Of a DNA stretch of 64,000 nt, positions 29,486 to 53,050 are shown in pieces. The DNA lies in assembly GCA_964574535.1 (NCBI GenBank), contig CAZNOB010000002.1, forward strand, positions 28,109 through 92,108, read 5' to 3'. The DNA is from an uncultured Granulosicoccaceae bacterium. GTDB taxonomy: Bacteria > Pseudomonadota > Gammaproteobacteria > Granulosicoccales > Granulosicoccaceae. The number at the start of each line of letters is the position of its first letter. Within the stretch, counting starts at the first letter, position 1. The notes beneath the pieces are model-generated. The model worked only from the letters and a program-made list of their open reading frames with translations, did no database searches and was not told where the DNA came from. Made by a program: the position numbers and the translations under genes.

Positions 29486-29575
29486 ACCAAGTGATTGGCT
29501 GTGCCACTAACCTGGAATGTTATTTCTCCCTTTGAACTTTTTACACTATGTGTTTTTACCAGTGGAATCCCTTTT

Positions 29576-31768: not shown

Positions 31769-31996
31769 GCGGGTAATAGAGAGGAAACACTCAGGCTTCA
31801 GGTAGTTGTTGTGGCGCCACTCAAAGTGATAGCGGAGTTTTCCGTATCAGCCAGATGGTTGAGCAGATGTCACCATGACTATCCGGTGTTGCTATGCATC
31901 ATGTGATATTGGTAGTTAGGCCCTGTGTCAATGCAAGACTTGAGTCGATATGTTTTCTATTTTCCCTGGAAGTCCGTCTAGATAACGTACGATCTT

Positions 31997-32785
31997 ATGA
32001 AATCTCGATCTCAAATCTCTGAATACTGTTTTCTGGCCGGTACCGGACGTAGCGGGACGACCGTGTTGCGAAATTCTTTTGGCTTGCACCAGGAGATCTA
32101 CTATAACGGAAAAGAAAATAATGTCGTGCAGGATGTCATTGACGTGGCGAGGCACAATTTCGTTTCGCCTTCCCGACAGTTTGCTTTAGTCGTTGATAAG
32201 GACACATACTGCACCGCGTTTCGAGATCTTTTGATCAGAATACTTTGGCCCAATCCCGAATTCGGATCGCGCCCGGTCAGGATGGCGGCGATCAATCCGT
32301 CCGGCGAAACCATGGAGTTTCTGCTGGAGATTTTTCCAAATGCTAAAGTGATTGGGCTGGTACGGGATGGTATTGATGTTGTACTTTCCCGCCAGAGGCA
32401 CCGTTCTTTCAAGCGTTTCACCTTCGAGTCGCATTGTCAGACATGGGTTCGGACTCAAGGGGTGGTCGAATGGGGTGAATTGAATCCTAATAATTTTCGA
32501 TTGTTCAGGTACGATTCGTTGTCTGACCGCAAGACACTTTCGACTACCTTTGCCGAATTGTTTGGATGGATGGGGCTTTCGCAGAACGATGCAGCGGTCG
32601 AACATGTGTTCGAAAAGCGGTATCACCCCACTGAGCTGGAAAAATCTCAAGCTGATTCTAACGACTCATCAACAGCTGAATCCAAACGCGCTCTATGGCA
32701 ACTTTGGAGCGAAGAGGAAAGAGAGCTTTTCCGTTCGATCTGCGGACCGTTCATGAAGCAAATGGGATTCGAAATGCCCTTTTAA
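31997..32785 (+). CDS. sulfotransferase (PAPS-dependent; Sulfotransfer_3-like)
   Basis: 262 aa. The 5'-PSB loop is LAGTGRSGTTVL. The 3'-PB-like motif is GLVRDGIDVVLS. Confidence 0.75.
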   Translation: MKSRSQISEYCFLAGTGRSGTTVLRNSFGLHQEIYYNGKENNVVQDVIDVARHNFVSPSRQFALVVDKDTYCTAFRDLLIRILWPNPEFGSRPVRMAAINPSGETMEFLLEIFPNAKVIGLVRDGIDVVLSRQRHRSFKRFTFESHCQTWVRTQGVVEWGELNPNNFRLFRYDSLSDRKTLSTTFAELFGWMGLSQNDAAVEHVFEKRYHPTELEKSQADSNDSSTAESKRALWQLWSEEERELFRSICGPFMKQMGFEMPF

Positions 32786-32918
32786 TTTCGAAGAGGCTGT
32801 GTTTGCGTTTGCAGTTGACTACCCGGCAGTGCGAGCTCAACATTTCTGACGAATTTTGCGTAGACATCAACCAGATCGGATTCCCTTCCCTGCCTCCTGC
32901 AAGCTAACTTTCGGTATT

Positions 32919-35456
32919 TTAAATCGCGGTGTGAATTTCGATTGCTACCCCTGCGCACGAAATTGATTCTGCTGTTGGTGAGCAAATTGCCATGAACACA
33001 ATGGAATCAGCGTTTTCCAGTGTGCTTGCATCGAGCCAATGATTAAATTTTTCCCGGGGTTTCAAAGTGAATCTCCGAGTACGGAGTGACTTCCCACAAG
33101 CATCGTACAGATCGATTACGATCACAACCCCATTGTTTAGTTTTGAAGGGTTCCCTGCAATTGCGGACCAGATAATTCCTCGAGTATGTACATTTGCTCG
33201 CAAATCAATGTGCCACTTTGGCTGATCTGTCGGGGCAATGGTTGTTGGATGCAAGTTGCACGCAATGTGGCCATCTCGATCCACTTCTCTACACCATTTG
33301 TTTGCCTGCAGGATTTTTCTGCTTGCAAAAAAAACTGAAGTATCCACCTTGTTCGATGTTTGCCCGTCACTTGTTAAGCGAGGGGGATCGGGTTGTGACT
33401 GTGCCAGCTGGCTAAAGAGCAATGAGAGATGGCGGCCATGCATTAGTGGAGATTCACTTGCCCGATAAGCAGTCGAGCAGTAACCGGCAATTCTAATACA
33501 ACTCCCAACTTCATCAAGTATGTATGATTGAAAACTATTCGGCTTGCCGAAGGTTTCCTGCCAGTCAACCTTAACCACTCTTTCCGCAGTATTGATCCCA
33601 TTGAGCCACGCCAGTTTAGCCGTTTCGAAATCCCCAACAGACCATGAAATGACGCCTCTGCGAAAGTCAGCTTCTATGCTCTTCGTAGCAATTGTTGGGT
33701 GGAACAGGAGCGGGTCAATTTTACTACAGCGCAGATAGTAGTCACGCGCAGTGTCGAGTTGTCCAATTCTTTGTTCCATTCGCCCAAGCAGGAATAAAAG
33801 AGAAATTGCCCAACGTATCTCGTGCGGTTCATCACCGTATTCTGATAGCCAGGAAGTAACGGATTTCTTAAAACTTCTGGTTTCTGCGGCTGCGACATCC
33901 TTTTCTAAAAATTGATAACCAAGAACGCATAAGGCTGCCCCGACATCCACAGAGTGCGCATTCAATGAAATAATTTGTTCACACGCTCGGGAAACATCAG
34001 AGGGGTTATTCGGTCGAGCGTATTTGTACACCAGGTTTTGAGCAATCCAGGGATTGCTATAGGATTTTTCAAAGTCAGTAGCGATGCTATTGCTGTTTGG
34101 GAACCGCCGATCAATGTAGCCTTGTCCGTCGTGAGCAAGCGGGTCTTTAATTGCTGTAGCGAGTAACCATTCACTTATCGGTGCTTGTTCCTGCTCGGCG
34201 TCAAAAGGCACCAATCTACGCTGGTCTTTCTGCCACTTACCCTCATTTTTTGAGCGTGTAGCAGTCTGTGCAAACGTTCGGTCAATGGCGTACCTGACCA
34301 GAAGTTGTTCCTTTAGGCTCCTCCAATCATAAACATGAAAATGATGAGGGTTAGGATCAATGCCTGTGTCGTCACTCCAGTCGTGTGGAACGCTTACTAT
34401 TATGCGTCCACCTGGTAAAAGAATGTCCCAACATGCCTGCAGAAAGGCGAGGGGATCTGCAATGTGTTCCAGCGTCTCGAAACATACTATCGCATTCACT
34501 CCAAGCTTTTTTATGTTGGACAGGCCTTCTGGTAATTCGGTTTCTACAAATGTCAGATCGGGAGAGACAAACGCTGCTTTGCAATAGTCAATAGCTCGCT
34601 TGCTCTGATCCAGTCCGACGATTGTTCTGGCGTCAGTGCATGATTTCAACAGCCAACTACCGTAACCAAGTCCGCACGCCGCATCGACAACGACATCACC
34701 GCTCTTAATAAACTGTCGCGCCCAGTGATAACGTATCAGATGCGCGTCAGATCTTGCGCCGGTCTCGCGTCCCATATCCATGTGCAAGCCACGGTTTTCC
34801 AGCAACCAATCTGATGAGTAGCTCTGCATGACATTCTCTGAAATTTTCTGTCCCAGAAAAACAATGTCTTGCGTTGGCTCTCCCATCTTTTGGTATTGAT
34901 TGTGATCGAAATAGCGAGGGTGTCGTCGGAAACCATTGTCGATTATTTGTTCTTCCCACCATTCACGGTTTTTAACCGTCAGGTGCCATTTGGCATCGCG
35001 ATCAACACGAGTTGCAATTCTCAGGTACAGGTTGTTACGTGTCACACGCCAAAGCTCGGCAATACACTGACACACATCTTCCTCTGCCAGATGTTCCAGA
35101 CAATCTGTTGATATAACCGTATCGAAGGAGTTGTCGCCGAAGGGTAACTGGCGTGCATCTCCAATGTGAAACTTGCCAGGGATTTTTAAGTTACAGGAAT
35201 CAACGGCAACTTTCGAGACATCAGCCCCGTGAGCATCTACGCCGAGTTCCAAAAGGGCGCGGACCATACTCCCCATTCCGGCGCCAACATCCAAATAGCG
35301 CCCAAATCCACACGACTTAACAATCTCTCGGGCCAGCTTATCGGGCTCGTCAATACTTGAAGCGCCCGCACGATCGGGCAAAAGCCAATAGCCGTCATAA
35401 AGCTCGGCATAGTTAACTTCATTTGTACTAAAGGGAGGCCTGGGAGAGGTATTCAA
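32919..35456 (-). CDS. multidomain protein: two class I SAM-methyltransferase domains, a TPR-like helical region and a C-terminal beta-rich region
   Basis: 845 aa. MT domain 1 has YLDVGAGMGSMVRAL / FDTVISTDCLEHL. MT domain 2 has VVDAACGLGYGSWLL / IVCFETLEHI / LLPGGRIIVSVP. The helical segment reads LGRMEQRIGQLDTARDYYLRCSKIDP. The last ~200 aa are unassigned. Confidence 0.75.
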   Translation of the reverse strand: MNTSPRPPFSTNEVNYAELYDGYWLLPDRAGASSIDEPDKLAREIVKSCGFGRYLDVGAGMGSMVRALLELGVDAHGADVSKVAVDSCNLKIPGKFHIGDARQLPFGDNSFDTVISTDCLEHLAEEDVCQCIAELWRVTRNNLYLRIATRVDRDAKWHLTVKNREWWEEQIIDNGFRRHPRYFDHNQYQKMGEPTQDIVFLGQKISENVMQSYSSDWLLENRGLHMDMGRETGARSDAHLIRYHWARQFIKSGDVVVDAACGLGYGSWLLKSCTDARTIVGLDQSKRAIDYCKAAFVSPDLTFVETELPEGLSNIKKLGVNAIVCFETLEHIADPLAFLQACWDILLPGGRIIVSVPHDWSDDTGIDPNPHHFHVYDWRSLKEQLLVRYAIDRTFAQTATRSKNEGKWQKDQRRLVPFDAEQEQAPISEWLLATAIKDPLAHDGQGYIDRRFPNSNSIATDFEKSYSNPWIAQNLVYKYARPNNPSDVSRACEQIISLNAHSVDVGAALCVLGYQFLEKDVAAAETRSFKKSVTSWLSEYGDEPHEIRWAISLLFLLGRMEQRIGQLDTARDYYLRCSKIDPLLFHPTIATKSIEADFRRGVISWSVGDFETAKLAWLNGINTAERVVKVDWQETFGKPNSFQSYILDEVGSCIRIAGYCSTAYRASESPLMHGRHLSLLFSQLAQSQPDPPRLTSDGQTSNKVDTSVFFASRKILQANKWCREVDRDGHIACNLHPTTIAPTDQPKWHIDLRANVHTRGIIWSAIAGNPSKLNNGVVIVIDLYDACGKSLRTRRFTLKPREKFNHWLDASTLENADSIVFMAICSPTAESISCAGVAIEIHTAI

Positions 35457-35458
35457 AA

Positions 35459-36463
35459 CTAAAGGCCCTCCCGAAATGCAAAATATTCATGGAGTGTGGA
35501 AATCCAGTCTGCATTGCGCGCATAGCCCTGGCTCTTAATTTCATCACCCGCCAAATCCTGCAAAACCTGACCGTCTTTACGTGTCAGATATCGTGTCCAA
35601 TCGCCTGCTACACCTTTTCGGATATGAGCGTTCGGTATGGAATCGCCCGGAGATCGCCCCCCGGACATAATTTCAAAGCGAGTGTTTTCAATGCACTGTA
35701 GAATATTTTCTTTACTGATTGGTATGCCTAGAAAATCGATCAACCTTGCCAGTTCGGGTTCTGGAGTTAACAGTAAATTCTCATACCTGATTGTGCAGTC
35801 CGAAAACTGTCTTTCAAGTTGGGACATTGCTACCCATGCATTGACCCAGCTTTCCAGTTCCCCCGTCCTGAACGCTGTATCCAAAGATGATGTTGTCCTT
35901 TTCTCTGATATTGTTCGCAAGCGGCTGATCTCGAAATCACTTGGGCCTTGCTCGGATGTTATGCGTTCGTGCCAGTGATACATCCCGCTTACCGCGACAT
36001 CACGACAGTCTCTCATCAGGAAAAATATTTTTGCCTGAGGAAATGAACGTCTATAGGCATTGTACGTATCCTTTTCTGATCCCATATAAGGGGTTACCTT
36101 GTCGACGATCACTTTGGCATTCGTTCGCGATTTGACAAAGTTCAGCAGCATCATGACAAGTTCCTGTGTCAGTTCAACCCGCAATGCTTCCTGATCAGTC
36201 AATCCCCGGGGTTTGGACATGTGTTGTGCGAGCTTGTATGCATACCTGTCGGCAGTTAACCGAAAGTCACTTCGACCATGCTGATCGAATGCTGCCATTT
36301 CGCTGTTACCAAACAACCGTAGTTCGGTACAGTCAACATCCGGCAGTGCATTCAGCATCGCCTTCATCCATGTTGTTCCAGACCGAGGAGTAGAAAACAG
36401 GGCTACGTGCACGATGTCACCCTGGCATGCGTATCCGGTTGTGGTACTCGTTGTTCTCATCAT
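35459..36463 (-). CDS. sulfotransferase (Sulfotransfer_1-like)
   Basis: 334 aa. The 5'-PSB loop is FSTPRSGTTWM and the 3'-PB motif is FFLMRDCRDVAVS. The C-terminal RKGVAGDWTRYLT resembles the RKGxxGDW motif of cytosolic-type sulfotransferases. Confidence 0.85.
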   Translation of the reverse strand: MMRTTSTTTGYACQGDIVHVALFSTPRSGTTWMKAMLNALPDVDCTELRLFGNSEMAAFDQHGRSDFRLTADRYAYKLAQHMSKPRGLTDQEALRVELTQELVMMLLNFVKSRTNAKVIVDKVTPYMGSEKDTYNAYRRSFPQAKIFFLMRDCRDVAVSGMYHWHERITSEQGPSDFEISRLRTISEKRTTSSLDTAFRTGELESWVNAWVAMSQLERQFSDCTIRYENLLLTPEPELARLIDFLGIPISKENILQCIENTRFEIMSGGRSPGDSIPNAHIRKGVAGDWTRYLTRKDGQVLQDLAGDEIKSQGYARNADWISTLHEYFAFREGL

Positions 36464-36688
36464 TCTATTTGTTATGTAGATTTTGGATCAGAGACTGCTG
36501 GGTCAATATCTTCATGTATGCGGGCTGCGAATTATGGTGCTATTGGTATCAGTGCAGGAAGTACAGTTTTCCCAACACTGTTTTTTTGGCCGAATTTGAA
36601 ACCAGCGTTTGCGTCTAACGATGTGCAATTCATATAATTCATATGTCAAGAGCATTCCAGTTTGATTGGTTTATTTATGCTTTACAGT

Positions 36689-37771
36689 TCATTTGTTGTT
36701 TATCGCTTCTTCGTCACACAGAACATTTAATAATGCATCTATCGATTCAGTTCGCTCCTGAATCACCCCTCCTTCTATAAGTTCTGTCTCTGGTTGGTTT
36801 CTGGCATCGCTATTGCCAAAATGTTTTATGAACAAATGCATCACATGGCGAACGCCCATATCTGTCACACTTCTGCAATCCGGGGCGAAATACTGACCAC
36901 GACTAAAAGGGCTTGTGATAATTTCAAAGGATGGGAAGTAGACACATTGATCGATGTGTTGTGTGGCTTCTTCGGCCGCTACCCGTAAAACCGCTTTTGA
37001 CCAGGTTGATGACACAAAGACATGACGATCTTCTTTTGTGGCGTTGAGCGGGACCGGGGACACGGTCAAAACAAATTTAACGTCAGGGTTTTTTTCACGG
37101 ATAAAATTTAGCGCAAACAGCAAATCCTCTACTGTTTCTTGCTGATTAAAATTATAAAACTCAACGGTTTCAGGATCATAAATCCCACCAGCTATTCCTG
37201 GAGCGACCGGGTAAACAGCGCCACTGTGCTTATCGATCCAACACTCTGTTAGCCCAAGCGTAAAAACAAATACTTTCATTTGCTCGATTGCTTTTCTGAT
37301 TGACGCGAAATGGTAGGTCTGATCGGCTTGTAATTCCGCCTCTGAAACAAAGCCACCTGGTTGAATCTGCGGCCGGAATGGATCTACAACCGATTTTCCA
37401 TCTTTGCCCGCCCAGGAAATTGTTATTGGCTCAAAATTCTCGTATGCCCTTTGTAACAGTTGTTTCAGCTGTCTGGCTGTATAGATGTTTCCGTAGCGGG
37501 CTGCAAACATACCGTAGTTAAAGAGGGTTTGCGTGCTTTTGGGGAACATCGGGTGGGCTGTTTCGGTGATGAAATGGTTGAACCCCGATTGGCTGAGGTG
37601 GTGTGCCACATGCTGAGCAAAACAGGAACCGGCTGTTACCACCGCATCCTCCGGGCATATTTTGAATGGAGGCTCTGCGACCGGGTCAAACGTCTCCGGC
37701 CGGTTGATAGCCGCTTCTTTTTTCCAAAACTGATAGTCGGGTAAACCGCTATAGGGGCTTCGTATGCTCAT
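36689..37771 (-). CDS. GSCFA-family protein
   Basis: 360 aa containing the eponymous motif in VVTAGSCFAQHVAHHL. The start overlaps the stop of the upstream gene (ATGA). Confidence 0.8.
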   Translation of the reverse strand: MSIRSPYSGLPDYQFWKKEAAINRPETFDPVAEPPFKICPEDAVVTAGSCFAQHVAHHLSQSGFNHFITETAHPMFPKSTQTLFNYGMFAARYGNIYTARQLKQLLQRAYENFEPITISWAGKDGKSVVDPFRPQIQPGGFVSEAELQADQTYHFASIRKAIEQMKVFVFTLGLTECWIDKHSGAVYPVAPGIAGGIYDPETVEFYNFNQQETVEDLLFALNFIREKNPDVKFVLTVSPVPLNATKEDRHVFVSSTWSKAVLRVAAEEATQHIDQCVYFPSFEIITSPFSRGQYFAPDCRSVTDMGVRHVMHLFIKHFGNSDARNQPETELIEGGVIQERTESIDALLNVLCDEEAINNK

Positions 37772-38517
37772 AATAGCGTTTTGATTTGATTTAACACCAA
37801 GTGACCATAATCCTGGTTGGCATGTAGAGGGTCACCCAACCAAAATGATGGTTTTAGACAGCGATCGTCATCTATTGACTCAAACGGGGTGGGAAGAAAC
37901 GGTAAGCCGATCGAATCACAGAACGTTTCAATGATTTCGATGTGAATATCGTAGCATGCTAAACGTATTTCTTTCGGAGCTATTGTGCTCGTCGGTTGAT
38001 TGGCATAAAGATGCAGGCTATTTTTTAGTTGATTCACATCGGCAATGGGTGGAGGCGGGCTAAGGAAAAAGCAATTATTTTCTTTAAATTGATTGTGTAA
38101 CGATTCAATGAGTGTAAAGGTGTTTCTCGTTTCAAATACATCCTGCATTTGATATTTCAACATTGATCTTGGAACAAAATGTCTGGCCGATCGATTCGGG
38201 GTCAAGCCAAGTTCTTTGTCTCCCACTGAGTATGGAATAAGATATTCGGTATATGAAAAAATGTTGAACTCATTTCCAAAGAGTGACAGGCACACAGCAT
38301 CGATCTCTTCCGAATCCATCTTAAAAGGCACACTGAAATGAGTATACTTTTCTTTGTCTTTTTGCAAAAAATCTGTAGTTTTAAAATGGACACTTTCGAC
38401 ATTCCAATCGTCTGGCTTCTCCTCTGCTGCTTGTGTAACAGTATGTGAGTGAGACATTCCGATAACGAGCAGATTTTTCTGTTGGCCGTTTCTCTGTGCA
38501 TTTAGTTCGATTTGCAT
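37768..38517 (-). CDS. hypothetical protein, possibly SGNH/GDSL-like fold
   Basis: About 249 aa from the ATG at 38517 (MQIELNAQ...). LLVIGMSHSH is block-I-like, SLFGNEFN is block-III-like, and C-terminal GDPLHANQDYGHLV is DxxH block-V-like. The resemblance is by eye only. The ORF opens at 38631. Confidence 0.4.
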   Translation of the reverse strand: MQIELNAQRNGQQKNLLVIGMSHSHTVTQAAEEKPDDWNVESVHFKTTDFLQKDKEKYTHFSVPFKMDSEEIDAVCLSLFGNEFNIFSYTEYLIPYSVGDKELGLTPNRSARHFVPRSMLKYQMQDVFETRNTFTLIESLHNQFKENNCFFLSPPPPIADVNQLKNSLHLYANQPTSTIAPKEIRLACYDIHIEIIETFCDSIGLPFLPTPFESIDDDRCLKPSFWLGDPLHANQDYGHLVLNQIKTLL

Positions 38518-38813
38518 ATGCAGCCGTGCTTTTAGTTGTGTTGCCCAATGAAAGAATCGTACGCTAATCGATCGGAAGGGCGTTGGCACTTTCCCATTAT
38601 ATTCTGCCGTTTTTGCCAAATGTTCTGGCACATTGTGGAACGCCAGGGCACGTGCTTAGATAGCCCGGTAACTATGTACAACTCTAGTGAAGCTATCGGT
38701 ATTGTTTCCAGGCTCTATCCAGATATCGTCCGTTAGATTTACGTCATGTTGCCATGGGGCGAGCCCATCGATTAACTGCCGTAATTCGGATTCCTTATCT
38801 GTAGTCAATGGCT

Positions 38814-39866
38814 CTACCTTTTTTGTAAAACAATAACTGTTTGTCGCGCGTGACCGAGCGGGATTACTTCTTCAATTTCCATGAACCGGCCCCAGACATT
38901 TTCAATGTGGCTTATGGAATGGAACGCCATTCCTCGGTAAGGCCCAACCTGGGTGTGTCGAAAACCGGTATGTCCCTCTGGCATGGGGTTTTCAAGCAAT
39001 TCGTAAAGATTTGGTATCGCTTTCTCAAAGCGTAAAAGCGAATCTGGATCTTCTGTTGTGGCTTGTTGCATCGCTGCCCAAGTGGATTCGGTATGAGCCG
39101 TGAGCAAAGCAATTCCACCTGGCTTCAAAACGCGCCTGATTTCTGCAAGCCAGCCGGTTTCAAATATATCGCAATGGGTAAATACAGAATAAGCTAAGAC
39201 AGCATCGAAATAATTGTCTTCCATTGGCAAGCTGGCGAGTGCTGGAAGGCTAATGGGCAATACTTGTTTTGGCATAAATTCGGATAGCCATCTGATGTGG
39301 CGATGGTTTAGCTCGGTTGCCCAGACTTCTGTCGCATCACTCTGACAAGCAAAATGCCTTAATACTCGTCCACTCGCTGCGCCCAGCTCAAGAGTTTTTT
39401 GCAACTCCACCCCATACTTTTCAGCCAGGACAGTTGCGACATAATAGTCTCGATATCCGGAGAGCCAGTAATATTCGTTGTGTTCGTCGGTACCATAACC
39501 CTCGCGGTCACGACTGCACGGTATTGGTATTGAATCTTTGGATATTGCGTGCTTGAGGCGCTCTATTTCCAGATGCGAAATTTCTGATGGTATGCGCCCG
39601 GAGTTGATCAGTCTAAAGTCTGCAGGGTCCCATTGACTTAGAGGAATGGCATTGACGAATGGCTCTCTATCAAGAGCATTTATAGAAAGATCGTCTTCCC
39701 ACCGTAATGGCCGGGTTGGCGCACTTTTAGAGTTACCCGGTTGCGTTTCCTTGATGTTTAGCACTTGATTTTGATGCCTCAAAGTCATTTTATATGGCCT
39801 CAATTTTTGTCCATAGGCATAAGTATAGTCAGGATAATCGGGATTTTTTCTGAGGCTTCTTTGCAC
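38814..39866 (-). CDS. class I SAM-dependent methyltransferase with unassigned ~150-aa N-terminal region
   Basis: 350 aa. Motif I is TLELGAASGRVLRHFA, followed by FDAVLAYSVFTH and LKPGGIALLTAH. Confidence 0.75.
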   Translation of the reverse strand: MQRSLRKNPDYPDYTYAYGQKLRPYKMTLRHQNQVLNIKETQPGNSKSAPTRPLRWEDDLSINALDREPFVNAIPLSQWDPADFRLINSGRIPSEISHLEIERLKHAISKDSIPIPCSRDREGYGTDEHNEYYWLSGYRDYYVATVLAEKYGVELQKTLELGAASGRVLRHFACQSDATEVWATELNHRHIRWLSEFMPKQVLPISLPALASLPMEDNYFDAVLAYSVFTHCDIFETGWLAEIRRVLKPGGIALLTAHTESTWAAMQQATTEDPDSLLRFEKAIPNLYELLENPMPEGHTGFRHTQVGPYRGMAFHSISHIENVWGRFMEIEEVIPLGHARQTVIVLQKR

Positions 39867-39894
39867 TCTTGAATGATATTGAGAGATCGAGCGA

Positions 39895-40605
39895 TTATCT
39901 TTTAAGAGGCAAGCTCAGGCCTCTGTGAGCAAGAATCCCATTGTAGATGATGTATTCGTCAGCCAGGATTTCACGTAACTGAGGTTCATATCTTTCGAGG
40001 GCCTCCTGCATGGCTTGTCGGTTCCTGTTTACATTGTTACGAAGCGCCGGTTGGCTTTTCCCTCCAAGTGCTTGTAATACAATTTGAAAGTCTTCATCGA
40101 AATTTTCTGTAATCCCTACAAAGTCAAATTTCTCAATAGCGTTGTACAGGGCTTCCTCAGATGTTGCGGAGTCAAAGGGTTTTAGATACTCCAGCGTTTT
40201 ATTCATATCGCCGGGGGATTGCATGTAGTCCTCGAACGTCGGAAATTGATTCTTAAATCCTTCCGGGTCCGTGTGCGCTTCGGAAATGCAGTAGAAATAG
40301 TCAGAAAGCGTCCGCTGGACAGGGTCCCTGAGAAACGTGATGAGTGCTACTCGTTCGCGGACCGGAGAGATAACATCAGCGATATCACGATACCGGTAGT
40401 GTCCCGAGATCATCCTCTCTTCACGGTCGAATAGTTGCGGTAAAAGTTTGATAAAACCGTCTCTGAGGTCAGCATACCCACCTTCATAGGGACCAAAGAC
40501 AAATGACGGTTTATGAGGGATCTGGTTGAAAATCTCGCCGAGTGTGTCACGCAGAGTAGTGCCAGCGGTTTTGGGTATGTGGATATTAATCAAGTGTTGT
40601 TTCAT
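39895..40605 (-). CDS. sulfotransferase (Sulfotransfer_2-like)
   Basis: From the ATG at 40605 the sequence is MKQHLINIHIPKTAGTTLRDTL. HIPKTAGT resembles the 5'-PSB loop of family-2 sulfotransferases. About 236 aa. The longer ORF to 40698 is unlikely. Confidence 0.65.
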   Translation of the reverse strand: MKQHLINIHIPKTAGTTLRDTLGEIFNQIPHKPSFVFGPYEGGYADLRDGFIKLLPQLFDREERMISGHYRYRDIADVISPVRERVALITFLRDPVQRTLSDYFYCISEAHTDPEGFKNQFPTFEDYMQSPGDMNKTLEYLKPFDSATSEEALYNAIEKFDFVGITENFDEDFQIVLQALGGKSQPALRNNVNRNRQAMQEALERYEPQLREILADEYIIYNGILAHRGLSLPLKR

Positions 40606-40844
40606 GAAGATCCCGTTGCTTACCTGAATATTTATCTTTGTCAATTCCCAAAAAAAACCTGTCTGAACTATAGTTAATAGTAGCGGTAATTTTGACAAAG
40701 TTTCGATCCACTTTGCTTTTCACTTATATTGGCAATATAAGTTGGGCTATTCACCAGATGTTAGTTCAGTGAACTGCAACGTTGTTTAGCCTCTCAAAGT
40801 TTCTTTAGCCGTTAGTATATTAAGTTGTTTTATACAAAGGGAAT

Positions 40845-41870
40845 ATGAATAAAATACTTGTTCTCGGTGGTGCGGGTTACATTGGCAGCCACACTTGCAA
40901 ACGTCTTCGTGCTTCGGGATTCGACCCTGTCACTTATGACAATCTATCTGAAGGCTACGCAGAATTCGTTAAATGGGGCGAGTTGATTGCCGGGGACATT
41001 CGTTGCAGAAGTGAACTAGATGCTGCACTTGCGCGCGTACGTCCCGCTGCCGTCATTCACTTTGCCGCCTATGCCTATGTGGGAGAGTCTGTCACCAACC
41101 CTGGTAAGTATTATGAAAACAATACGCTGGGTTCTCTCAATGTGGCTCAGGCACTTCGCGATGCAGGCAATATACCGCTAATATTTTCATCGACTTGTGC
41201 AACCTACGGCATCCCTGACGACGGGCTCATTAGCGAAGATAACGCGGTCCAGCCGATCAATCCGTATGGTAGAAGCAAGCTGATGGTAGAGCAGATTCTG
41301 CAGGATTTTTCGTCCGCCCATGGATTAAGAAGTGCGTGCCTGAGATATTTCAACGCAGCTGGAGCAGACCCTGATAGAGAGATTGGTGAAGCACATCGTG
41401 AAGAAACCCACGTGATACCACGAGCAATACTGGCGGGTCTTGGTCGTATCGATAACTTTGCGGTATTTGGAGACGATTACAGTACGAAAGATGGGTCCGC
41501 TGTACGCGACTATGTCCATGTAAATGATCTCGCAGATGCGCACGTCGCCGCTTGTCGGTATTTGGTGGATAAAAATGGCCAAAGCGACGTATTTAATGTT
41601 GGCGTTGGGCGAGGGTATTCGGTGCTGGAAATAATTAAAGCGGTAGAAGAGGAAATCGGAAACCGGGTCCCTTACACAGTGAAATCTCGTCGGCCCGGAG
41701 ATCCTCCGGAGCTGGTGGCCGCCACCGATAAGACACAAAAAATACTTGGTTTCCAGGCGCAGTATTCGGACCTGCCTGGTATTGTTCAAACTGCAGCCGC
41801 CTGGCATCGCATGAATTGGATGCCAGCCAAAGTGAGCCGCACCGGAAATCGAGTACCCAGTTTTGCTTAA
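40845..41870 (+). CDS. galE: UDP-glucose 4-epimerase
   Basis: 341 aa. Contains ILVLGGAGYIGSH (Rossmann motif), STCATYG and YGRSK (SDR catalytic YxxxK). An AAGGGA RBS precedes the ATG. Confidence 0.9.
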   Translation: MNKILVLGGAGYIGSHTCKRLRASGFDPVTYDNLSEGYAEFVKWGELIAGDIRCRSELDAALARVRPAAVIHFAAYAYVGESVTNPGKYYENNTLGSLNVAQALRDAGNIPLIFSSTCATYGIPDDGLISEDNAVQPINPYGRSKLMVEQILQDFSSAHGLRSACLRYFNAAGADPDREIGEAHREETHVIPRAILAGLGRIDNFAVFGDDYSTKDGSAVRDYVHVNDLADAHVAACRYLVDKNGQSDVFNVGVGRGYSVLEIIKAVEEEIGNRVPYTVKSRRPGDPPELVAATDKTQKILGFQAQYSDLPGIVQTAAAWHRMNWMPAKVSRTGNRVPSFA

Positions 41871-44643
41871 GCTCTCTGAAGTTTATGACTGGTTTTTTAA
41901 TCTGGATTTTGTCCGAAGTCAATATCCGATGCTTAAAGAAAAGTCTGACACAGCGATAATCAGGGATATACTCGATCCGGATAATACCTCCCCGTACGAT
42001 CCTAACCTCCTTTTTGACGGTAGTTTCTATAAGCGTAATCTCGGAAGCGGGACTTCGCTAAGAAATCCGGTTCTTCACTTTTTGACAGAAGGTGCGAATC
42101 AGGGACTCTCATCAAATCTCTGCTTTGATCCCCTGTATTATCTGACACAAGTACCCGGCCCGCCGATGTCGGTCATGGCCGCTTTGAAAGATGCGTTGTC
42201 CAGGTTGGACGGGAAGGGCACGTTGCCAGCGTTCCACCCCTTCATTAATGAGGAATACATTCGGCTTCAGCACAATCCCGGTGAGCCATCAGATTTTTAC
42301 TTACGGCTTTTTCGAGGTAACTACTTCATCAGCAAATCTGCACCTCTGGTGGACATCGCCTATTTTGGCCACAGCGTGCAGAAAGAGTTTGATAGTTTTG
42401 CAGAAGCATTCGGCCATTATTGGCAGGCTGAAGAGGATCTATCAACCCATGTTCTTTTTGAGCTGGATTACTACCGAAGCCAGCTTCCGGACGAAGAACG
42501 GGTTCGCCGCGCGGTTTACCATTACCTGGTCAGTGATCACCCTCTATCGCCACAACCATTGTTTGATCCGGGCTTTTACCTGGCTTCAACCCGGAAATTG
42601 TTGGGTGAAAGCCCAAGGCGTCCGTTTGAACATTTTCTCACCAAAGGACAAGCCGCGGGTTTGACTCCCTCGCCACTATTCGACGTCGATTTTTATCGAC
42701 GGCAAACGCATTGCGGACCCGATGCGTTACAGCACTATCTGGAAGGTGGCCACCGTAGTACCGAGGCACACCCGATGGTCAGGTTCGCTGAGGCAAGATT
42801 GCTATCAAACGCCGCACTAGACCCGAATCGTTCAACCTTGTCTCGGTTGGCGGAATCGTCTCCCGAGTTGCCGCTAAGTGTGACACCGGAATTTGACCCG
42901 TCTTACTGGAAGCCGAAGTCTGGAAAGGCACTTCCTGCGGATGCTTCTGAAATCGAGCTAAGGGACCACTATCTGAAACAGGGTTACCCGGCCGGGCTTT
43001 GTCCCAATTGGCTTCTATCAGCAAGCTACATTGCAAAACAGGCTGAGCTTGAAGATAAAAAAAACGTTAACTCCATTCAGCACTATTTTAGTCAGGGGTG
43101 GCATCGGCGCGTAGGTGTAATGATCGCGTTGCATTCTTTTCAGGACACACCGGGAAATCGGACCTGGCTGGAAATTTTGCGGGGACAAGTTGATGTCACT
43201 GACCTCGAAGTGATCGTTGTTGCACAAAGTCCCGGACCTTTATCTAAAGAGTTTCGTGATTGTGCTCATGTCTGGCAAGTGCCTAAGCCAACGGAAAATA
43301 AGTCTCATAGCGAACAACTGGAAATCTCGATCACTCGACTGAATGAAACGCTGCAAGCCAATCCCCCTGCTGTGGTGTTTGTTGAAGGCGAGTCAGATTG
43401 GCTACTTGCTATGAATCTCAAAGTGTTCGACGCACCTAAAGTTCTGTTTGGCGGCCCAAAGCTTCTGCAAGCTGAACACGAAGATGTGGAGCAAATAAAC
43501 ACCGCGGCGAACCTTGTCTGGAGTCTAGCCGGACCTGTGAGCGATCACCTCAAGCGCTTATTCGATACCAGTAACATTCAGGTACGAGAAGGCTATTACC
43601 CTGGAGCGAATGCACGGGCGATAACACGAAGCCGATTGGGAGTCGGGTCAGATGCCATTCTGGTCGTCGGTAGTGGCCCGCTGGATATCGCGAACGGTGT
43701 TGATCTGTTCGGCGCTATTGCAGCCAGGTACTACACAGCATCGGGAACGAAGCCGGATTTGTGCTTTGCCTGGCAGGGTTCGGGTCCTACACACCCAAAC
43801 ACCCCGGCGTTCTATGCCAGGTATGCCGTGGACATAGCGGCAGGCCCCGGTAAATTGCACATTCTGACAGACATTGATACGCGAAGCGTGCTGGCGGCTG
43901 CAGATATTTTTCTGCAAACCAGACGGCACCACTCCGATTTTGATGCAAGCGATGACGCCAGGGCCATGGGTGTGCCGGTATTGCGTATGAGTGACACGCT
44001 TGACAGCGACACGCAGACATTTGCACCTTATGATCTTGATGACGCTGTCTCAGCGCTGGCATTCCTGGTCGAGAATCTGAAGCCGCCGAGTATCTTTCGC
44101 ACGGGAGCACTGGCGGATACTTCAAACAATTCAGATCTCTCAAAATTTGTGCGAAGTTTTAATGAATGCACGCAGTCCCTGGGTGTGGATGTAAAGTTTG
44201 TCGAGCCAGCATCTACTACGCAATGTCAAAACCTGCTTGTTCTCACAAGTGAGAAGCGTTTAATCAAAATTAGAGAGTTCGAGCCGACGAAGCGATATTT
44301 TGGTCTGCCTGATAGTGTACGTATTTCACAAGCACAGCTGGAGCATATGGATCTGCCTGACGGGTTCAAAAACCTGTTAGTACAAGAGAGCGAAAGCGAC
44401 CTTGTCTTTTGCGCGGTCGAGACCGCAGACCTCTCTGGTCTGGCGGATAGGTTCAATCGGTTGATCGGGTTGCTGGAGGCAGGCGATTTGGATCTCGATG
44501 TGGCTGGCAAGATGAGCGCAGTCTGCGACCGAATAGCGGTGGACAGTCCGGAACTGAGTACAGCGATGGAGGCAATTAATCCTCGTAAAGCTGCAGCATT
44601 GACTTATACCAACGGAGATATCCCGTGCTCAGAAGCCTGTTAA
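41863..44643 (+). CDS. large repeat protein with degenerate GT4-like C-terminal half
   Basis: 926 aa. Residues ~12-416 are ~10 divergent tandem repeats (FD..FY...HY/HF....G....P). Residues ~417-730 are paralogous to the next gene's GT4 domain, but the EX7E region is replaced (DFDASDDARAMGVPVL). A TTG start overlaps the galE stop by 8 nt. An alternative ATG lies at 41929. Confidence 0.6.
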   Translation: MLKLSEVYDWFFNLDFVRSQYPMLKEKSDTAIIRDILDPDNTSPYDPNLLFDGSFYKRNLGSGTSLRNPVLHFLTEGANQGLSSNLCFDPLYYLTQVPGPPMSVMAALKDALSRLDGKGTLPAFHPFINEEYIRLQHNPGEPSDFYLRLFRGNYFISKSAPLVDIAYFGHSVQKEFDSFAEAFGHYWQAEEDLSTHVLFELDYYRSQLPDEERVRRAVYHYLVSDHPLSPQPLFDPGFYLASTRKLLGESPRRPFEHFLTKGQAAGLTPSPLFDVDFYRRQTHCGPDALQHYLEGGHRSTEAHPMVRFAEARLLSNAALDPNRSTLSRLAESSPELPLSVTPEFDPSYWKPKSGKALPADASEIELRDHYLKQGYPAGLCPNWLLSASYIAKQAELEDKKNVNSIQHYFSQGWHRRVGVMIALHSFQDTPGNRTWLEILRGQVDVTDLEVIVVAQSPGPLSKEFRDCAHVWQVPKPTENKSHSEQLEISITRLNETLQANPPAVVFVEGESDWLLAMNLKVFDAPKVLFGGPKLLQAEHEDVEQINTAANLVWSLAGPVSDHLKRLFDTSNIQVREGYYPGANARAITRSRLGVGSDAILVVGSGPLDIANGVDLFGAIAARYYTASGTKPDLCFAWQGSGPTHPNTPAFYARYAVDIAAGPGKLHILTDIDTRSVLAAADIFLQTRRHHSDFDASDDARAMGVPVLRMSDTLDSDTQTFAPYDLDDAVSALAFLVENLKPPSIFRTGALADTSNNSDLSKFVRSFNECTQSLGVDVKFVEPASTTQCQNLLVLTSEKRLIKIREFEPTKRYFGLPDSVRISQAQLEHMDLPDGFKNLLVQESESDLVFCAVETADLSGLADRFNRLIGLLEAGDLDLDVAGKMSAVCDRIAVDSPELSTAMEAINPRKAAALTYTNGDIPCSEAC

Positions 44644-46580
44644 GTCAGCCTCAGCCCTCGCACATGCAAGAAATCGACAGTGATGAAGTCATAACCGAGA
44701 CACTTGCTGTTTCCAATGCAGTCGATAGGCCGTACTACCTTTCAAATAATTCAGATGTAGCACTGGCGAAGATTGATCCCTTATTGCATTTTTATCTCCA
44801 TGGGGCCGCCGAAGGACGCCTGCCCAACCCCTGGTTTACAGAAGGCTATATTCGAAGCAGCCTGCATCAGACATCATTCTACGAACAGTCCATTCCGAAC
44901 GCCTACGTTGACTCCGGCTTGTATGACAAGCCGAGATTGATTTTTGTCAGTCACGATGCCTCCCGTACCGGTGCACCGGCTATTATTCTGCAGTTGCTTG
45001 AGCTGTTCAGTCAGGGTGGTGCTTTTGAATGTTTTTCGATTCTGGATGATGGCGGTGAGCGTTTGTCCGAGTTTCAGGCTTTGTCCCATACCCATGTTAT
45101 GTCCCGGCATCGATATGACACAACTTTTTCAGAAGAGGAAGCTACACTGGAGTTAGCGGCTCTGTTCGATCCCAACGGATTGTTTAAAGATAATGCCCCA
45201 GTTTGCGCATTGGTGAATTCTGCTGAGTCCATTCGTATCGCGCGAATTCTGGCGAAGACCGGCGTTCCCATAATCTCTTTGATACATGAAATTGCCGCTT
45301 ATTATCCATCCAGAATTTTCACAGAGTTCGGCAACCTGTCGGAGAAAGTTGTATTTCCGTCCGAGTTCGTCAAGGACGCCGCAGAGTGTTTTTCAGACAT
45401 TCAGAGCGACAAAATCCACGTACGAGGACAGGGCCTTCTGACCGACGGTTTCGGTTCAGCGGAGCGCGATAACTGCCGCAAGCTGCTTCGAGAAGAGTTG
45501 GGAATCGAGCAGGACGCCGTTATTGTTCTGAATGTGGGTACTATGGATCTTCGAAAAGGTGGTGATTTGTTTGTCGAGACAGCAAAAATCTGCCTGCAGC
45601 GGCTCCCTGAAGGGTCACCGTTGTACTTTGTGTGGTATGGAAAATCAGATGTAAACTTGAACTATCCCCATGAGATCGTTCAGCAGTACGGGCTCGAGGA
45701 GCATATCCGATTTATGCCGGCTACGCCGGAGATAGAGCAGGTGTTTATGGGGGGGGATATTTTCCTGTTGACTGCCCGGGCGGATCCGTTTCCCTGTGTC
45801 ATTCACGAAGCAATGGCTTGCGGACTTCCAGTTGTGGCTTTCCGAAATGGTGGTGGTGCACCGGAACTCATTGGTGATGATTGCGGGCAGGTAGTAGAGA
45901 TGATGAACCTGAAGGCCATGTCTGACGCTATCTTCATTTATATGAATGATCCGGAGATTCGCCGAACTCACGCCAGAAACGCCATCGCAAAAATTGCCCG
46001 TAGCTGGGATTATCGAAGCTATCAGAATGATCTCTACACACTAATGCAAAGCTGTGTTTCTGCGCCGAAATCAGGCTGGCCAGAACTGCTGCAACCGTGG
46101 TCACCGGAGAAACTGATCATCATGCATGGGTCGCAGAGCGATTTGCAGACCTTTGAAAAACTGATTGACGGGAGTGCAGGTTCACTGGATATTGCATTGA
46201 TAAATGGTCGTTTTGACGTTGATACAGAATCTATTGCTGCTCGTCTCCGACAACTTGAGCATCGTACCCGCCACTTCCAGCCGGAAGAGGATACACCTGA
46301 GGATCGGGCGGCGGTCGTGGTAAAATTGTTGAAACAGCCGAATATTCGGGAAGCTGTACTGGTTGATGTGATTCAGTACATCCTTCCTTCTCAGCTTAAA
46401 ACCCTTGATTATCCGGTCCACGTTGTGCAAACGGAAATGTCTCCTAACGACGCAAATCTGCATCTCGTCCTGCCTTATATCGCAAGCTTGACACTGAAAG
46501 ATGGAAAAAAGATCAACCTGACGTTTGAAGAGAAAAACCAAAAAACCAAATTATCACCGAAGATTCATACTATTGCTTAA
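44625..46580 (+). CDS. glycosyltransferase family 4 (GT-B, group 1) with N-terminal repeat unit
   Basis: 651 aa. Contains RLIFVSHDASRTGAP, VLNVGTMDLRKGGDLF and GDIFLLTARADPFPCVIHEAMACGLPVVAFRNGGGAPELI (EX7E-type motif). The N-terminus carries one copy of the repeat seen in the previous gene (DRPYYLSNNSDVALAKIDPLLHFYLHGAAEGRLPNPWF). An alternative ATG lies at 44664. Confidence 0.85.
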   Translation: MLRSLLSQPQPSHMQEIDSDEVITETLAVSNAVDRPYYLSNNSDVALAKIDPLLHFYLHGAAEGRLPNPWFTEGYIRSSLHQTSFYEQSIPNAYVDSGLYDKPRLIFVSHDASRTGAPAIILQLLELFSQGGAFECFSILDDGGERLSEFQALSHTHVMSRHRYDTTFSEEEATLELAALFDPNGLFKDNAPVCALVNSAESIRIARILAKTGVPIISLIHEIAAYYPSRIFTEFGNLSEKVVFPSEFVKDAAECFSDIQSDKIHVRGQGLLTDGFGSAERDNCRKLLREELGIEQDAVIVLNVGTMDLRKGGDLFVETAKICLQRLPEGSPLYFVWYGKSDVNLNYPHEIVQQYGLEEHIRFMPATPEIEQVFMGGDIFLLTARADPFPCVIHEAMACGLPVVAFRNGGGAPELIGDDCGQVVEMMNLKAMSDAIFIYMNDPEIRRTHARNAIAKIARSWDYRSYQNDLYTLMQSCVSAPKSGWPELLQPWSPEKLIIMHGSQSDLQTFEKLIDGSAGSLDIALINGRFDVDTESIAARLRQLEHRTRHFQPEEDTPEDRAAVVVKLLKQPNIREAVLVDVIQYILPSQLKTLDYPVHVVQTEMSPNDANLHLVLPYIASLTLKDGKKINLTFEEKNQKTKLSPKIHTIA

Positions 46581-47125: not shown

Positions 47126-47536
47126 TTATGCGCTAGCCTTATAGTGGTATTCGCTGTGGTGTCCGCGAGTTTTTTCAAGCACAAAGTTCAGGTGTTGATG
47201 CAGCAGGTCATCCGCCGTTTTATCTACATCGATAAACTTCACCCTTGATGTGAATTTTTTATTCCCGGCATGGCGAGTTGCTTCTTCGGATGAGATTACC
47301 TCTGCGCGTATAGATACAGTTCTCTGTTCAGAACCAAGCCGCATGGTTATTAAAAGCAGCTCACCCTTTGGTAGCTTTGATTCGTGTAAAAAGCATAGGC
47401 CGCCGCAGCTAAAGTTGACGACATGGGTTAGCTGTTCGTCGAGTGGGGTGTAGCCTATCGCAGTTTGCGCGTTTTCTACTCGCAGGGCCATTGCGTCTGA
47501 TACGCGTCGGTGTTTTCTTTTTTCCAGGAATTTCAT
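47126..47536 (-). CDS. PilZ domain protein (c-di-GMP binding)
   Basis: 136 aa. The RxxxR motif is in EKRKHRRVSD and the (D/N)xSxxG motif is in NFSCGGLCF. Confidence 0.75.
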   Translation of the reverse strand: MKFLEKRKHRRVSDAMALRVENAQTAIGYTPLDEQLTHVVNFSCGGLCFLHESKLPKGELLLITMRLGSEQRTVSIRAEVISSEEATRHAGNKKFTSRVKFIDVDKTADDLLHQHLNFVLEKTRGHHSEYHYKASA

Positions 47537-52854: not shown

Positions 52855-53050
52855 GCGGACGCCCTCCACCTGTGCCGTCGCAAACCGTGTACCTTGAACC
52901 AGTCGGTTCAGGTGGGAGGGATTATTGCCGAATCAGGCTTCCCGCCGTAGCGGACATGCACAACAACGACAGATAACCTGGCTCCCGGGGTAACGAATTA
53001 GGCTCAAGGGATATAACGGGCCTGCAAACGAACACTGCAGAGAACGTCCA
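52855..53050 (-). ncRNA. ssrS: 6S RNA
   Basis: It lies immediately downstream of zapA on the same strand, the conserved zapA-ssrS arrangement. The minus-strand sequence ...GUGUUCGUUUGCAGGCCCGUUAUAUCCCUUGAGCCUAAUUCG...GGGAAGCCUGAUUCGG...CCACCUGAACCGACUGGUUCAAGGUAC... resembles the conserved 6S segments as I recall them from E. coli. The ends GGACG.../...CGUCC can pair to close the long helix. The ends are approximate to +/-10 nt. Confidence 0.75.

Follow-up and report, generated by a model that had tools for sequence, protein, structure and literature searches.

What does a bacterium make with a gene cluster in which sulfotransferases and methyltransferases crowd around a single active glycosyltransferase, and in which export genes are missing? 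The question is raised by an island of 14.6 kb (positions 31997–46580) in a 64,000-nt stretch of contig CAZNOB010000002.1, assembled from an uncultured Granulosicoccaceae bacterium; this full stretch is referred to here as the window. Our preferred answer, to which we give a probability of roughly 45%, is that the island encodes a self-contained, soluble, cytoplasmic cassette that would make an O-sulfated, O-methylated alpha-galactosyl oligo- or polysaccharide. A self-sufficient pathway is favoured over decoration of a host-specific exopolysaccharide (EPS) or lipopolysaccharide (LPS) because the core of the island has its own sugar-nucleotide enzyme and a two-part glycosyltransferase, and travels between bacterial classes. 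An oligo- or polysaccharide product is favoured mainly because a repeat found in the glycosyltransferase pair marks polymer-type glycan chemistry.

The island consists of ten open reading frames (ORFs), all intact and non-overlapping save for a few nucleotides at gene ends. Families were called with Pfam gathering scores and NCBIfam cut-offs, and each gene is assigned below either to the conserved core or to an extension:

31997–32785, plus strand: ST3, Sulfotransfer_3-type sulfotransferase, 262 amino acids (aa); PF13469, 48.7 bits against a cut-off of 27; extension
32919–35456, minus strand: MT2x, 845 aa, two S-adenosylmethionine (SAM)-dependent methyltransferase domains; Methyltransf_11, 100 bits in two stretches; extension
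35459–36463, minus strand: ST1, Sulfotransfer_1/3 sulfotransferase, ORF of 334 aa; PF00685, 87.7 bits against a cut-off of 22; extension
36689–37771, minus strand: GSCFA-family protein, 360 aa; PF08885, 163.9 bits against a cut-off of 25; extension
37768–38631, minus strand: 287-aa ORF, no family match; extension
38814–39866, minus strand: MT-B, SAM-dependent methyltransferase, ORF of 350 aa with one domain; Methyltransf_11, 49.8 bits; core
39895–40605, minus strand: ST2, Sulfotransfer_2-type carbohydrate sulfotransferase, 236 aa; PF03567, 36.8 bits against a cut-off of 22; core
40606–40844, no strand: AT-rich divergent intergenic region between ST2 and GalE; GC content 0.35 for 40699–40844
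40845–41870, plus strand: GalE, UDP-glucose (or UDP-GlcNAc) 4-epimerase; TIGR01179, 405.4 bits against a cut-off of 262.3; core
41863–44643, plus strand: X, predicted pseudo-glycosyltransferase of 926 aa, degenerate GT4 paralogue; no Pfam match; core
44625–46580, plus strand: GT4, retaining glycosyltransferase of 651 aa; PF00534, 80.4 bits against a cut-off of 26.4, and PF13692, 71.4 against 27; core

An initial annotation of this DNA treated the island as a single unit. Comparison with other genomes divides it into a mobile five-gene core and a lineage-specific five-gene extension. In the core, a Sulfotransfer_2 gene diverges from GalE (or another epimerase of the short-chain dehydrogenase/reductase (SDR) type), X and GT4, accompanied by a methyltransferase. 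This arrangement recurs in 13 genomic contexts from two classes, some of them metagenome-assembled genomes (MAGs):

Gammaproteobacteria: the window; L010; L007 (of the fused lineage L007–L009); L012, a Granulosicoccaceae MAG
Alphaproteobacteria: Pelagimonas phthalicica (L013); Shimia isoporae (L015); Litoreibacter (L096); Hoeflea (L097); the MAGs L016, L017, L098, L099 and L100

GT4 orthologues are 41–75% identical across the Alpha- and Gammaproteobacteria, the alphaproteobacterial ones at 41–58% over more than 90% of the length, and the relative in L010, flanked by recR-ybaB-dnaX, is 62% identical. For X, the sole match among GTDB species representatives is the Granulosicoccaceae MAG, at 38–42% identity. 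ST2 orthologues (38–49% identity) hold the same divergent position in four alphaproteobacterial contexts, and weaker homologues are found there in most of the others. In 8 of the 13 contexts GalE directly precedes X, and elsewhere it is absent or replaced by another SDR epimerase; the second SDR gene of the alphaproteobacterial modules scores under the cut-off of all NCBIfam models, and none of them assigns it a specific nucleotide-sugar reaction. The genes next to the core differ in each of the 13 contexts, and in Hoeflea an integrase adjoins the module. Some of these modules carry further genes of related interest. Inside the L099 module (7803–8660, minus strand), a gene of the galactose-3-O-sulfotransferase family PF06990, a mostly eukaryotic family, stands beside a shortened X of 398 aa. 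About 5.7 kb downstream of the Litoreibacter module (L096:17637–19172, plus strand), and in this context only, there is a sulfatase (PF00884).

The other five genes (ST3, the 845-aa MT2x, ST1, GSCFA and the 287-aa ORF) were found only in contigs of the same strain (L001–L003 for ST3) and are thus taken as a lineage-specific extension. The GSCFA protein sequence is identical on contigs from six metagenome assemblies, where most of the ten ORFs recur with self-level scores; with this near-identical recurrence, the island genes are evidently stably maintained in the uncultured organism. In the strain variant L001 (14990–15792, corresponding to window positions 31980–32782), ST3 is split over two frames and measures 253 aa rather than 262 aa; this gene, the outermost of the island, may be frameshifted there or may vary between strains.

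The glycosyltransferase of the core comes in two parts. GT4 is, by its sequence features, the only catalytically intact glycosyltransferase of the island. Its AlphaFold2 (AF2) model (pLDDT 88.4, pTM 0.87) has a helical N-terminal repeat (residues 19–97), a GT-B core (104–477) and an extra C-terminal alpha/beta domain (496–631), the last of which matched nothing in a relaxed Pfam scan (E up to 10). A basic pair, R310-K311, and an acidic motif, D387/E395 (E/D-x7-E), are invariant in 53 GT4 orthologues, and together with the profile match and the GT-B fold they place the protein in CAZy family GT4. A Foldseek search with the model returned BshA, HepE, MshA and WaaG as the top matches (target-normalised TM-score, TMt, 0.78–0.86; E about 1e-16), with ManT (7qsg), an enzyme of methylmannose-polysaccharide synthesis, at rank 44 (E = 3.6e-13).

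X has no Pfam match of its own, and its descent becomes visible only by direct comparison. BLASTP aligns X residues 583–707 with the C-terminal Rossmann domain of GT4 (E = 7e-9), and hhalign, given 21 X and 53 GT4 sequences, aligns X 329–918 with GT4 18–649 at a probability of 100% (E = 3.6e-56). X is thus a full-length GT4 paralogue placed behind about 330 aa of extra repeats. Among the 21 X sequences, the residues that are invariant in GT4 at H110, G116, H221, E222, G268-Q-G270, R310-K311, D387, E395 and E414 all vary, and the structural invariants G305, D314, F316, F335, W337, G339, D378 and R385 are kept. X has lost the donor-binding and catalytic residues of the family and does not qualify as an active CAZy GT4 enzyme; we regard it as homologous to GT4 and predict it to be non-catalytic. 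The finding of one intact GT4 and one degenerate paralogue, made in the initial annotation, thereby holds, by Pfam for GT4 and by BLASTP and hhalign for X. The degeneracy has been maintained: at 50% identity, at least 21 clusters share it, and they have conserved residues of their own. A full HMMER search of 1.84 billion representative sequences found about 25 full-length X clusters; a word-indexed homologue search with a six-sequence X alignment added no new members, the repeats having saturated its candidate list.

A precedent for such a pair exists. GtfA and GtfB, which attach O-GlcNAc to serine-rich-repeat adhesins of Gram-positive bacteria, consist of an active GT-B subunit and an inactive GT-B partner; GtfB lacks two basic residues and the essential glutamate and binds the substrate (bioRxiv 10.1101/219105). 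X shows the same pattern of loss relative to GT4, the two genes overlap by 19 nt, and in the L007–L009 lineage X and GT4 are joined in one protein of 1556 aa (P0003). We infer from the overlap, the natural fusion and the GtfA/GtfB precedent that X and GT4 form a hetero-complex. The likeness is one of function rather than of family membership: a PDB sequence search with GT4 returned no GtfA or GtfB chain at E ≤ 0.001. The island differs from the adhesin system in several further respects. Its host is Gram-negative and marine, the pair is accompanied by sulfotransferases and methyltransferases, about 330 aa of additional repeats precede the GT4-like part of X, both X and GT4 have an extra C-terminal alpha/beta domain, and the X–GT4 complex is a prediction. 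No serine-rich-repeat adhesin and no accessory Sec genes were found in the window or in the flanks of the relatives.

The repeat that occupies the N-terminus of X is about 40 residues long and follows the pattern FDxxFY...HYLxxGxxxGxxP. It spans X residues 1–400 (window 41863–43060), and one copy is present in GT4, at residues 33–76 (window 44721–44852). A profile built from the GT4 copy finds at least three copies in X, and some six or seven can be picked out by eye. No Pfam model describes it, even in a relaxed scan (E up to 10). In the HMMER search, 1777 proteins with E < 1e-10 share mainly the repeats with X. Five giant proteins among the repeat-bearing ones (1300–2500 aa) were scanned and also contain WbsX, GT2, GT4, RgpF, Stf0-sulfotransferase or pyruvyl-transferase domains, and it is because of this company that we treat the repeat as a marker of polymer-type glycan chemistry. 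With more than 1700 proteins and no Pfam model, the repeat is a candidate new domain family that merits definition. Two larger metagenomic clusters, which hold more distant GT4 relatives, appear to be cousins of the island: L019:1–22370 encodes two giant GT4 proteins together with three sulfotransferases and as many methyltransferases, and L069:1–14202 encodes two sulfotransferases, two methyltransferases and an FkbM methyltransferase. Between them they hold repeat-bearing GT4 proteins of 1042–1314 aa along with GT2, MBOAT and an LPG_synthase_TM membrane protein, suggesting that glycan loci rich in sulfation and methylation form a wider and still unexplored class.

The tailoring enzymes would act on whatever this pair produces. 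All three sulfotransferases called in the initial annotation score above their Pfam gathering cut-offs, and all three keep both motifs that bind 3′-phosphoadenosine 5′-phosphosulfate (PAPS): the 5′-phosphosulfate loop (GRSGTTV at residue 17 of ST3, PRSGTTW at 26 of ST1, PKTAGTT at 42 of ST2) and the 3′-phosphate RD...S motif (RDGIDVVLS at 123, RDCRDVAVS at 151 and RDPVQRTLS at 124, in the same order). Profile scores and motifs together assign them to the PAPS-dependent sulfotransferases. Gene callers start ST1 at 36358 (299 aa); the ATG of ST2 is at 40605, within an ORF that extends to 40698. ST1 resembles NoeE weakly (22 bits against a cut-off of 500), and with no NodC-type synthase present we rejected a Nod-factor-like pathway. 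The methyltransferases were overcounted at first: instead of four domains spread over three proteins, the island has three in two, with a pair in the 845-aa MT2x and a single one in the 350-aa MT-B. The domains of MT2x lie at residues 55–142 and 258–352, and the best PDB sequence match of the first is a D-glucose O-methyltransferase (6uv6, E = 8e-7). The remaining C-terminal half, about 450 aa, shows sub-threshold TPR matches only (TPR_8, E = 0.01). MT-B, which gene callers start at 39788 (324 aa), matches nothing at its N-terminus in a relaxed Pfam scan (E up to 10). In Pelagimonas, Shimia and Hoeflea, GT4 is followed by a double methyltransferase, and MT-B shares 31–45% identity with the C-terminal domain of these proteins as well as with the methyltransferase that stands alone in the Granulosicoccaceae MAG; on these comparisons it is the orthologue of that C-terminal domain, which we also call MT-B.

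The alphaproteobacterial modules contain fusions of Sulfotransfer_2 with a methyltransferase, MT-A, and of MT-A with MT-B (L015:2831–4315, L096:12128–13705, L097:121–1764, L097:1958–3742 and L013:11992–13752). Such sulfotransferase–methyltransferase and methyltransferase–methyltransferase fusions argue that the tailoring enzymes act on one substrate. The initial annotation also named a GSCFA protein with an SGNH-like partner. The GSCFA call is secure in its profile score (the family belongs to the SGNH clan) and in a GSCFA block-I motif at residue 48; no comparable match backs the label of the partner. With thresholds relaxed to E = 10, the 287-aa ORF (249 aa from the gene callers' start at 38517) still matches nothing in Pfam, NCBIfam or the PDB sequences; BLASTP shows no similarity to its GSCFA neighbour, and its SGNH-like motifs (GMSHS at 58, FGNE at 118, DPLH at 267) were picked by eye only. 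No member of the GSCFA family has been characterised (PMC9487903). The tailoring-to-glycosyltransferase ratio of about 8 to 2 is accordingly kept as an excess and revised as a count, to 7–8 tailoring domains for one active and one pseudo-glycosyltransferase.

The coordinates and overlaps agree with the proposed layout of a minus-strand operon and a divergent plus-strand operon. GalE and X overlap by 8 nt and the 287-aa ORF and GSCFA by 4 nt, and only 2 nt separate ST1 from the 845-aa gene. ST3 converges on the minus-strand genes, and ST2 diverges from GalE across an intergenic region (40699–40844) with a GC content of 0.35, compared with 0.49 in the window. Bidirectional promoters are presumed here; promoter and terminator scans of 31.7–47.2 kb gave no more consensus matches than expected from shuffled sequence. 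Base composition is ordinary throughout the island save for the 287-aa ORF, which at 0.41 has the lowest GC content; with only this ORF deviating, a recent foreign acquisition, as judged by composition, was rejected. None of the island proteins is predicted to have a transmembrane segment, and none contains a hydrophobic stretch that would fit a transmembrane helix.

The missing export genes were sought more widely. We compared all non-shadow ORFs of at least 150 aa in the window, and three shorter ones, with Pfam, and found among them no Wzx/Wzy/Wzz, Wza/Wzc or Wzm/Wzt, no WbaP/WecA-type transferase, no acyl carrier protein and no CysDN/CysC; for these scanned ORFs, the absence of surface-polysaccharide machinery and of cysDN/cysC reported in the initial annotation is confirmed. 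The sole ABC ATPase of the window (17043–18086) is of the importer type, has a TOBE domain and lies 14 kb from the island. Nor was an exporter, polymerase or initiating transferase encoded within about 10 kb of the core in the 11 contexts annotated with Pfam. With neither an initiating transferase nor Wzx/Wzy, Wzm/Wzt or OPX/PCP proteins in the window or these contexts, the locus does not have the make-up of a surface-polysaccharide locus. The possibility that it is a fragment of a classical, already characterised capsule or O-antigen locus was rejected, as export genes occur in none of the annotated contexts. The only membrane proteins near the module in these contexts are a GT2 and LPG_synthase_TM pair, 3–5 kb away in L098. 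The lack of PAPS genes, noted in the initial annotation, is not unusual: PAPS is an ordinary intermediate of sulfate assimilation in many proteobacteria.

The flanks of the island are otherwise gammaproteobacterial housekeeping DNA, with topA, dprA, def, fmt, rsmB, a two-component system, trkAH, rho and purD, and further with an oxidoreductase–SelD fusion, a PilZ protein, uppP, zapA, the 6S RNA gene, pepP, leuS and lptE. The fusion lies directly upstream of the island (29495–31768, plus strand) and is a protein of 757 aa that joins an oxidoreductase of the pyridine-nucleotide-disulfide type (TIGR03169, 427 bits against 310) to SelD (TIGR00476, 236 against 125); the 'fusion_not_SelD' model scores 431 bits, under its cut-off of 700. 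Directly after GT4 come a stand-alone PilZ protein (47126–47536, minus strand), possibly a c-di-GMP receptor, and uppP/BacA, encoding undecaprenyl-diphosphatase (47736–48572, minus strand). Contigs of the same strain keep this adjacency, other genomes with the core module do not, and a functional link to the island is thus conjectural. The 6S (SsrS) RNA gene (52859–53046, minus strand; Rfam RF00013, 76.1 bits against a gathering score of 46.4) is found just downstream of zapA (53122–53457, minus strand) and near a UPF0149 gene. The grouping of zapA, 6S RNA and UPF0149 is the usual arrangement of the enterobacterial type.

How might these genes work together? In the pathway we propose, GalE, known here from its family assignment only, would supply UDP-galactose (UDP-Gal). 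GT4, as the sole catalytic retaining and hence alpha-linking transferase, would then, together with X, add alpha-galactose repeatedly to a generic primer, and X, in complex with GT4, would bind the acceptor or the chain as it grows, its N-terminal repeats perhaps serving as docking sites for the tailoring enzymes. ST2 and MT-B would decorate the sugar, drawing PAPS and SAM from general metabolism. The second tier of this lineage, comprising two more sulfotransferases, the double methyltransferase with its TPR-like tail, and GSCFA with its possibly SGNH-like partner, would add further and different decorations; that GSCFA and its partner handle O-acyl groups is a guess. The product would either stay in the cell or leave it by housekeeping or unlinked machinery. 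Several observations point this way. One active glycosyltransferase stands beside 5–8 tailoring domains, and a hexose offers four free hydroxyls, which makes an alpha-galactose homo-oligomer or polymer likelier than a single residue. The cassette moves between classes without genes for a carrier lipid, flippase or exporter and is thus probably self-sufficient, or works on a universal acceptor or generic primer. The PF06990 gene in the L099 module fits galactose as the sulfated sugar.

A number of points weigh against this pathway. The product, the acceptor and the activities of the cassette are all predictions from sequence. GalE, although its call as an equivalog is firm (TIGR01179), could supply UDP-GalNAc or serve housekeeping only, and the argument for a polymer fails if the tailoring enzymes act as alternatives to one another or on the acceptor. 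Enzymes with small-molecule acceptors (BshA, MshA), LPS-core acceptors (WaaG) and polysaccharide acceptors (HepE, ManT) match the GT4 model about equally well, so that the fold confirms the family and not the acceptor. The AF2 model of X, made from three homologues, is unusable (pLDDT 35, pTM 0.22), and its complex with GT4 is inferred. One 64-kb window of the genome was covered, and exporters may lie elsewhere. Finally, the GT2 and LPG_synthase_TM pair occurs within a few kb in both L098 and the cousin cluster L019, which could mean a lipid-linked route.

These points leave room for other explanations. The initial annotation favoured enzymes that decorate a pre-existing acceptor. In such a scheme the backbone (the core or lipid A of LPS, a repeat unit of O-antigen or EPS linked to undecaprenyl, or a chain of the ABC pathway) would be made elsewhere and modified on the cytoplasmic face, X–GT4 adding an alpha-galactose branch and the sulfotransferases and methyltransferases modifying that branch, with export by MsbA/Lpt or by unlinked Wzx or Wzm/Wzt. 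Its description of the locus as tailoring-dense and exporter-less stands, and an acceptor made elsewhere is one live option, but not the best supported one, given a portable core with its own GalE and GT4/X; we consider it possible, if doubtful. The absence of exporters and initiating enzymes from the window and the 11 annotated contexts agrees with it, LPS-core assembly needs no locus-specific exporter, and one of the best structural matches, WaaG, is a GT4 enzyme of the LPS core. Sulfated LPS is known in rhizobia. Sulfated capsules are known in marine Cobetia (PMC11766843), but the cluster responsible includes a kps ABC exporter and PAPS genes, unlike the island. The position of uppP, about 1.2 kb past the GT4 stop codon, counts in its favour, yet this adjacency is not conserved in the relatives. 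Most awkward for a host-specific backbone is that the cassette is kept as a unit across two classes and in unrelated neighbourhoods. That same spread would be natural for a universal acceptor, such as diacylglycerol or a common metabolite. GT4 would then place galactose on it and a sulfotransferase would turn it into an anionic sulfogalactolipid or sulfated glycoside, a bacterial counterpart of seminolipid or sulfatide, or a lipid that replaces anionic phospholipids without using phosphorus; no exporter would be needed. All the proteins are soluble or at most peripheral, the family GT4 includes diacylglycerol glycosyltransferases, the small-molecule enzymes BshA and MshA are top structural matches, and PF06990, present in the L099 module, includes the animal sulfatide and seminolipid enzymes. 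A glycolipid or small molecule is nevertheless distinctly unlikely: a single hexose has fewer free hydroxyls (four) than there are O-tailoring domains (5–8), the scanned giant proteins that share the repeat of X are multi-domain polysaccharide enzymes, and no lipid-related gene is conserved in the module.

The likeness to GtfA/GtfB invites the further thought that a protein is glycosylated in the cytoplasm, with X binding a Ser/Thr-rich protein as GtfB does, GT4 glycosylating it, and the sulfotransferases and methyltransferases modifying the sugars. Two contexts do encode large secreted or repeat proteins close to the module: L013 has an RTX protein, and L010 an SdrD/SpaA-like protein of 1233 aa. 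However, no candidate substrate protein beside the module is conserved across the 13 contexts, the window has no Ser/Thr-rich repeat protein near the island, no accessory Sec or other dedicated secretion system was found, and Pfam reports no DUF1975-type domain in X or GT4, all of which makes protein O-glycosylation improbable. That the island is what is left of an earlier polysaccharide locus, now decaying or without function, is very improbable indeed. The catalytic degeneracy of X, the disrupted frame of ST3 in L001 and the deviating GC content of the 287-aa ORF could be read as signs of decay, but all ten ORFs are intact, GSCFA is identical in the six assemblies and most ORFs recur at self level, degenerate X is maintained in its many clusters with conserved residues of its own, and the gene order of the core is kept across classes.

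Further known systems invite comparison with the island. The closest precedent for a compact, exporter-less cluster of GT4 and methyltransferase genes is the mycobacterial 3-O-methylmannose polysaccharide (MMP) cluster, manT-meT1-meT3-mmpH, whose product is intracellular (PMC9883506). Like the clusters for MMP and methylglucose lipopolysaccharide (MGLP), the island combines, in its gene content, a GT4 enzyme and SAM-dependent O-methyltransferases with no lipid-carrier or export genes. Unlike the island, these clusters are actinobacterial, make a mannose or glucose polymer, involve neither sulfation nor a pseudo-glycosyltransferase, and have a dedicated hydrolase, MmpH; no MmpH-like hydrolase was identified in the island, and the similarity between the genes is at the superfamily level only, as the Foldseek rank of ManT illustrates. 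Sulfation by PAPS-dependent sulfotransferases alongside glycosyltransferases is shared with the capsular polysaccharide (CPS) cluster of Cobetia marina (PMC11766843) and with the cyanobacterial xss cluster for synechan. The Cobetia cluster has about 70 genes, among them a kps ABC exporter, kpsSC for priming, cysNC/cysD/cysQ and nucleotide-sugar operons (PMC11766843), whereas the cassette has 5–10 genes and none of the kps exporter, priming, cys or nucleotide-sugar operons. A last point of comparison is the WbdA/WbdD type of Escherichia coli O8/O9a, in which multi-module GT4 polymerases and terminating methyltransferases build an ABC-transporter-dependent O-antigen. The island would resemble it in assembly by a soluble or peripheral GT4 at the cytoplasmic face, in methyltransferases acting on the chain, and in large proteins with non-catalytic scaffolding regions. 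It differs in having no recognisable Wzm/Wzt, no WecA-dependent adaptor glycosyltransferases, no kinase or coiled-coil terminator, and one active glycosyltransferase only.

How new is such a cassette? Its catalytic domains are all of known superfamilies, and it is therefore not categorically new. Literature searches on GSCFA, on marine clusters of sulfotransferases, methyltransferases and glycosyltransferases, and on Granulosicoccus sulfotransferases returned no description of it, in support of the earlier judgement that the locus is undescribed. No match was found for its architecture, for the X family, for the unmodelled repeat, or for the exporter-less logic of sulfation plus methylation. 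A bolder version of our reading, which we hold to be rather unlikely, is that the core defines an unrecognised class of glycan: a sulfated, polymethylated alpha-galactan or oligogalactoside, made by soluble enzymes without a lipid carrier or dedicated exporter, as a Gram-negative marine counterpart of the intracellular polymethylated polysaccharides of mycobacteria. Its synthase would be of a new, two-subunit type, the unmodelled repeat array of the dead paralogue (units of about 40 residues) holding the chain and recruiting the tailoring enzymes.

Few sulfated glycans are known from bacteria, and little of their genetics has been mapped. In the sea, glycans that bear sulfate and methyl groups resist degradation and influence carbon turnover; there is also demand for them as heparin- or carrageenan-like materials. 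Against this background, what looked like an odd island becomes a defined, recurrent five-gene cassette, and because it is present in the cultured Pelagimonas phthalicica and Shimia isoporae, its product is directly determinable. Should the X–GT4 pair work as proposed, it would add a second, independent example of a dead paralogue that serves a glycosyltransferase as acceptor-binding subunit. And should the product prove to be intracellular, or to be made without a lipid carrier, the concept of polymethylated polysaccharides would reach beyond the actinobacteria.

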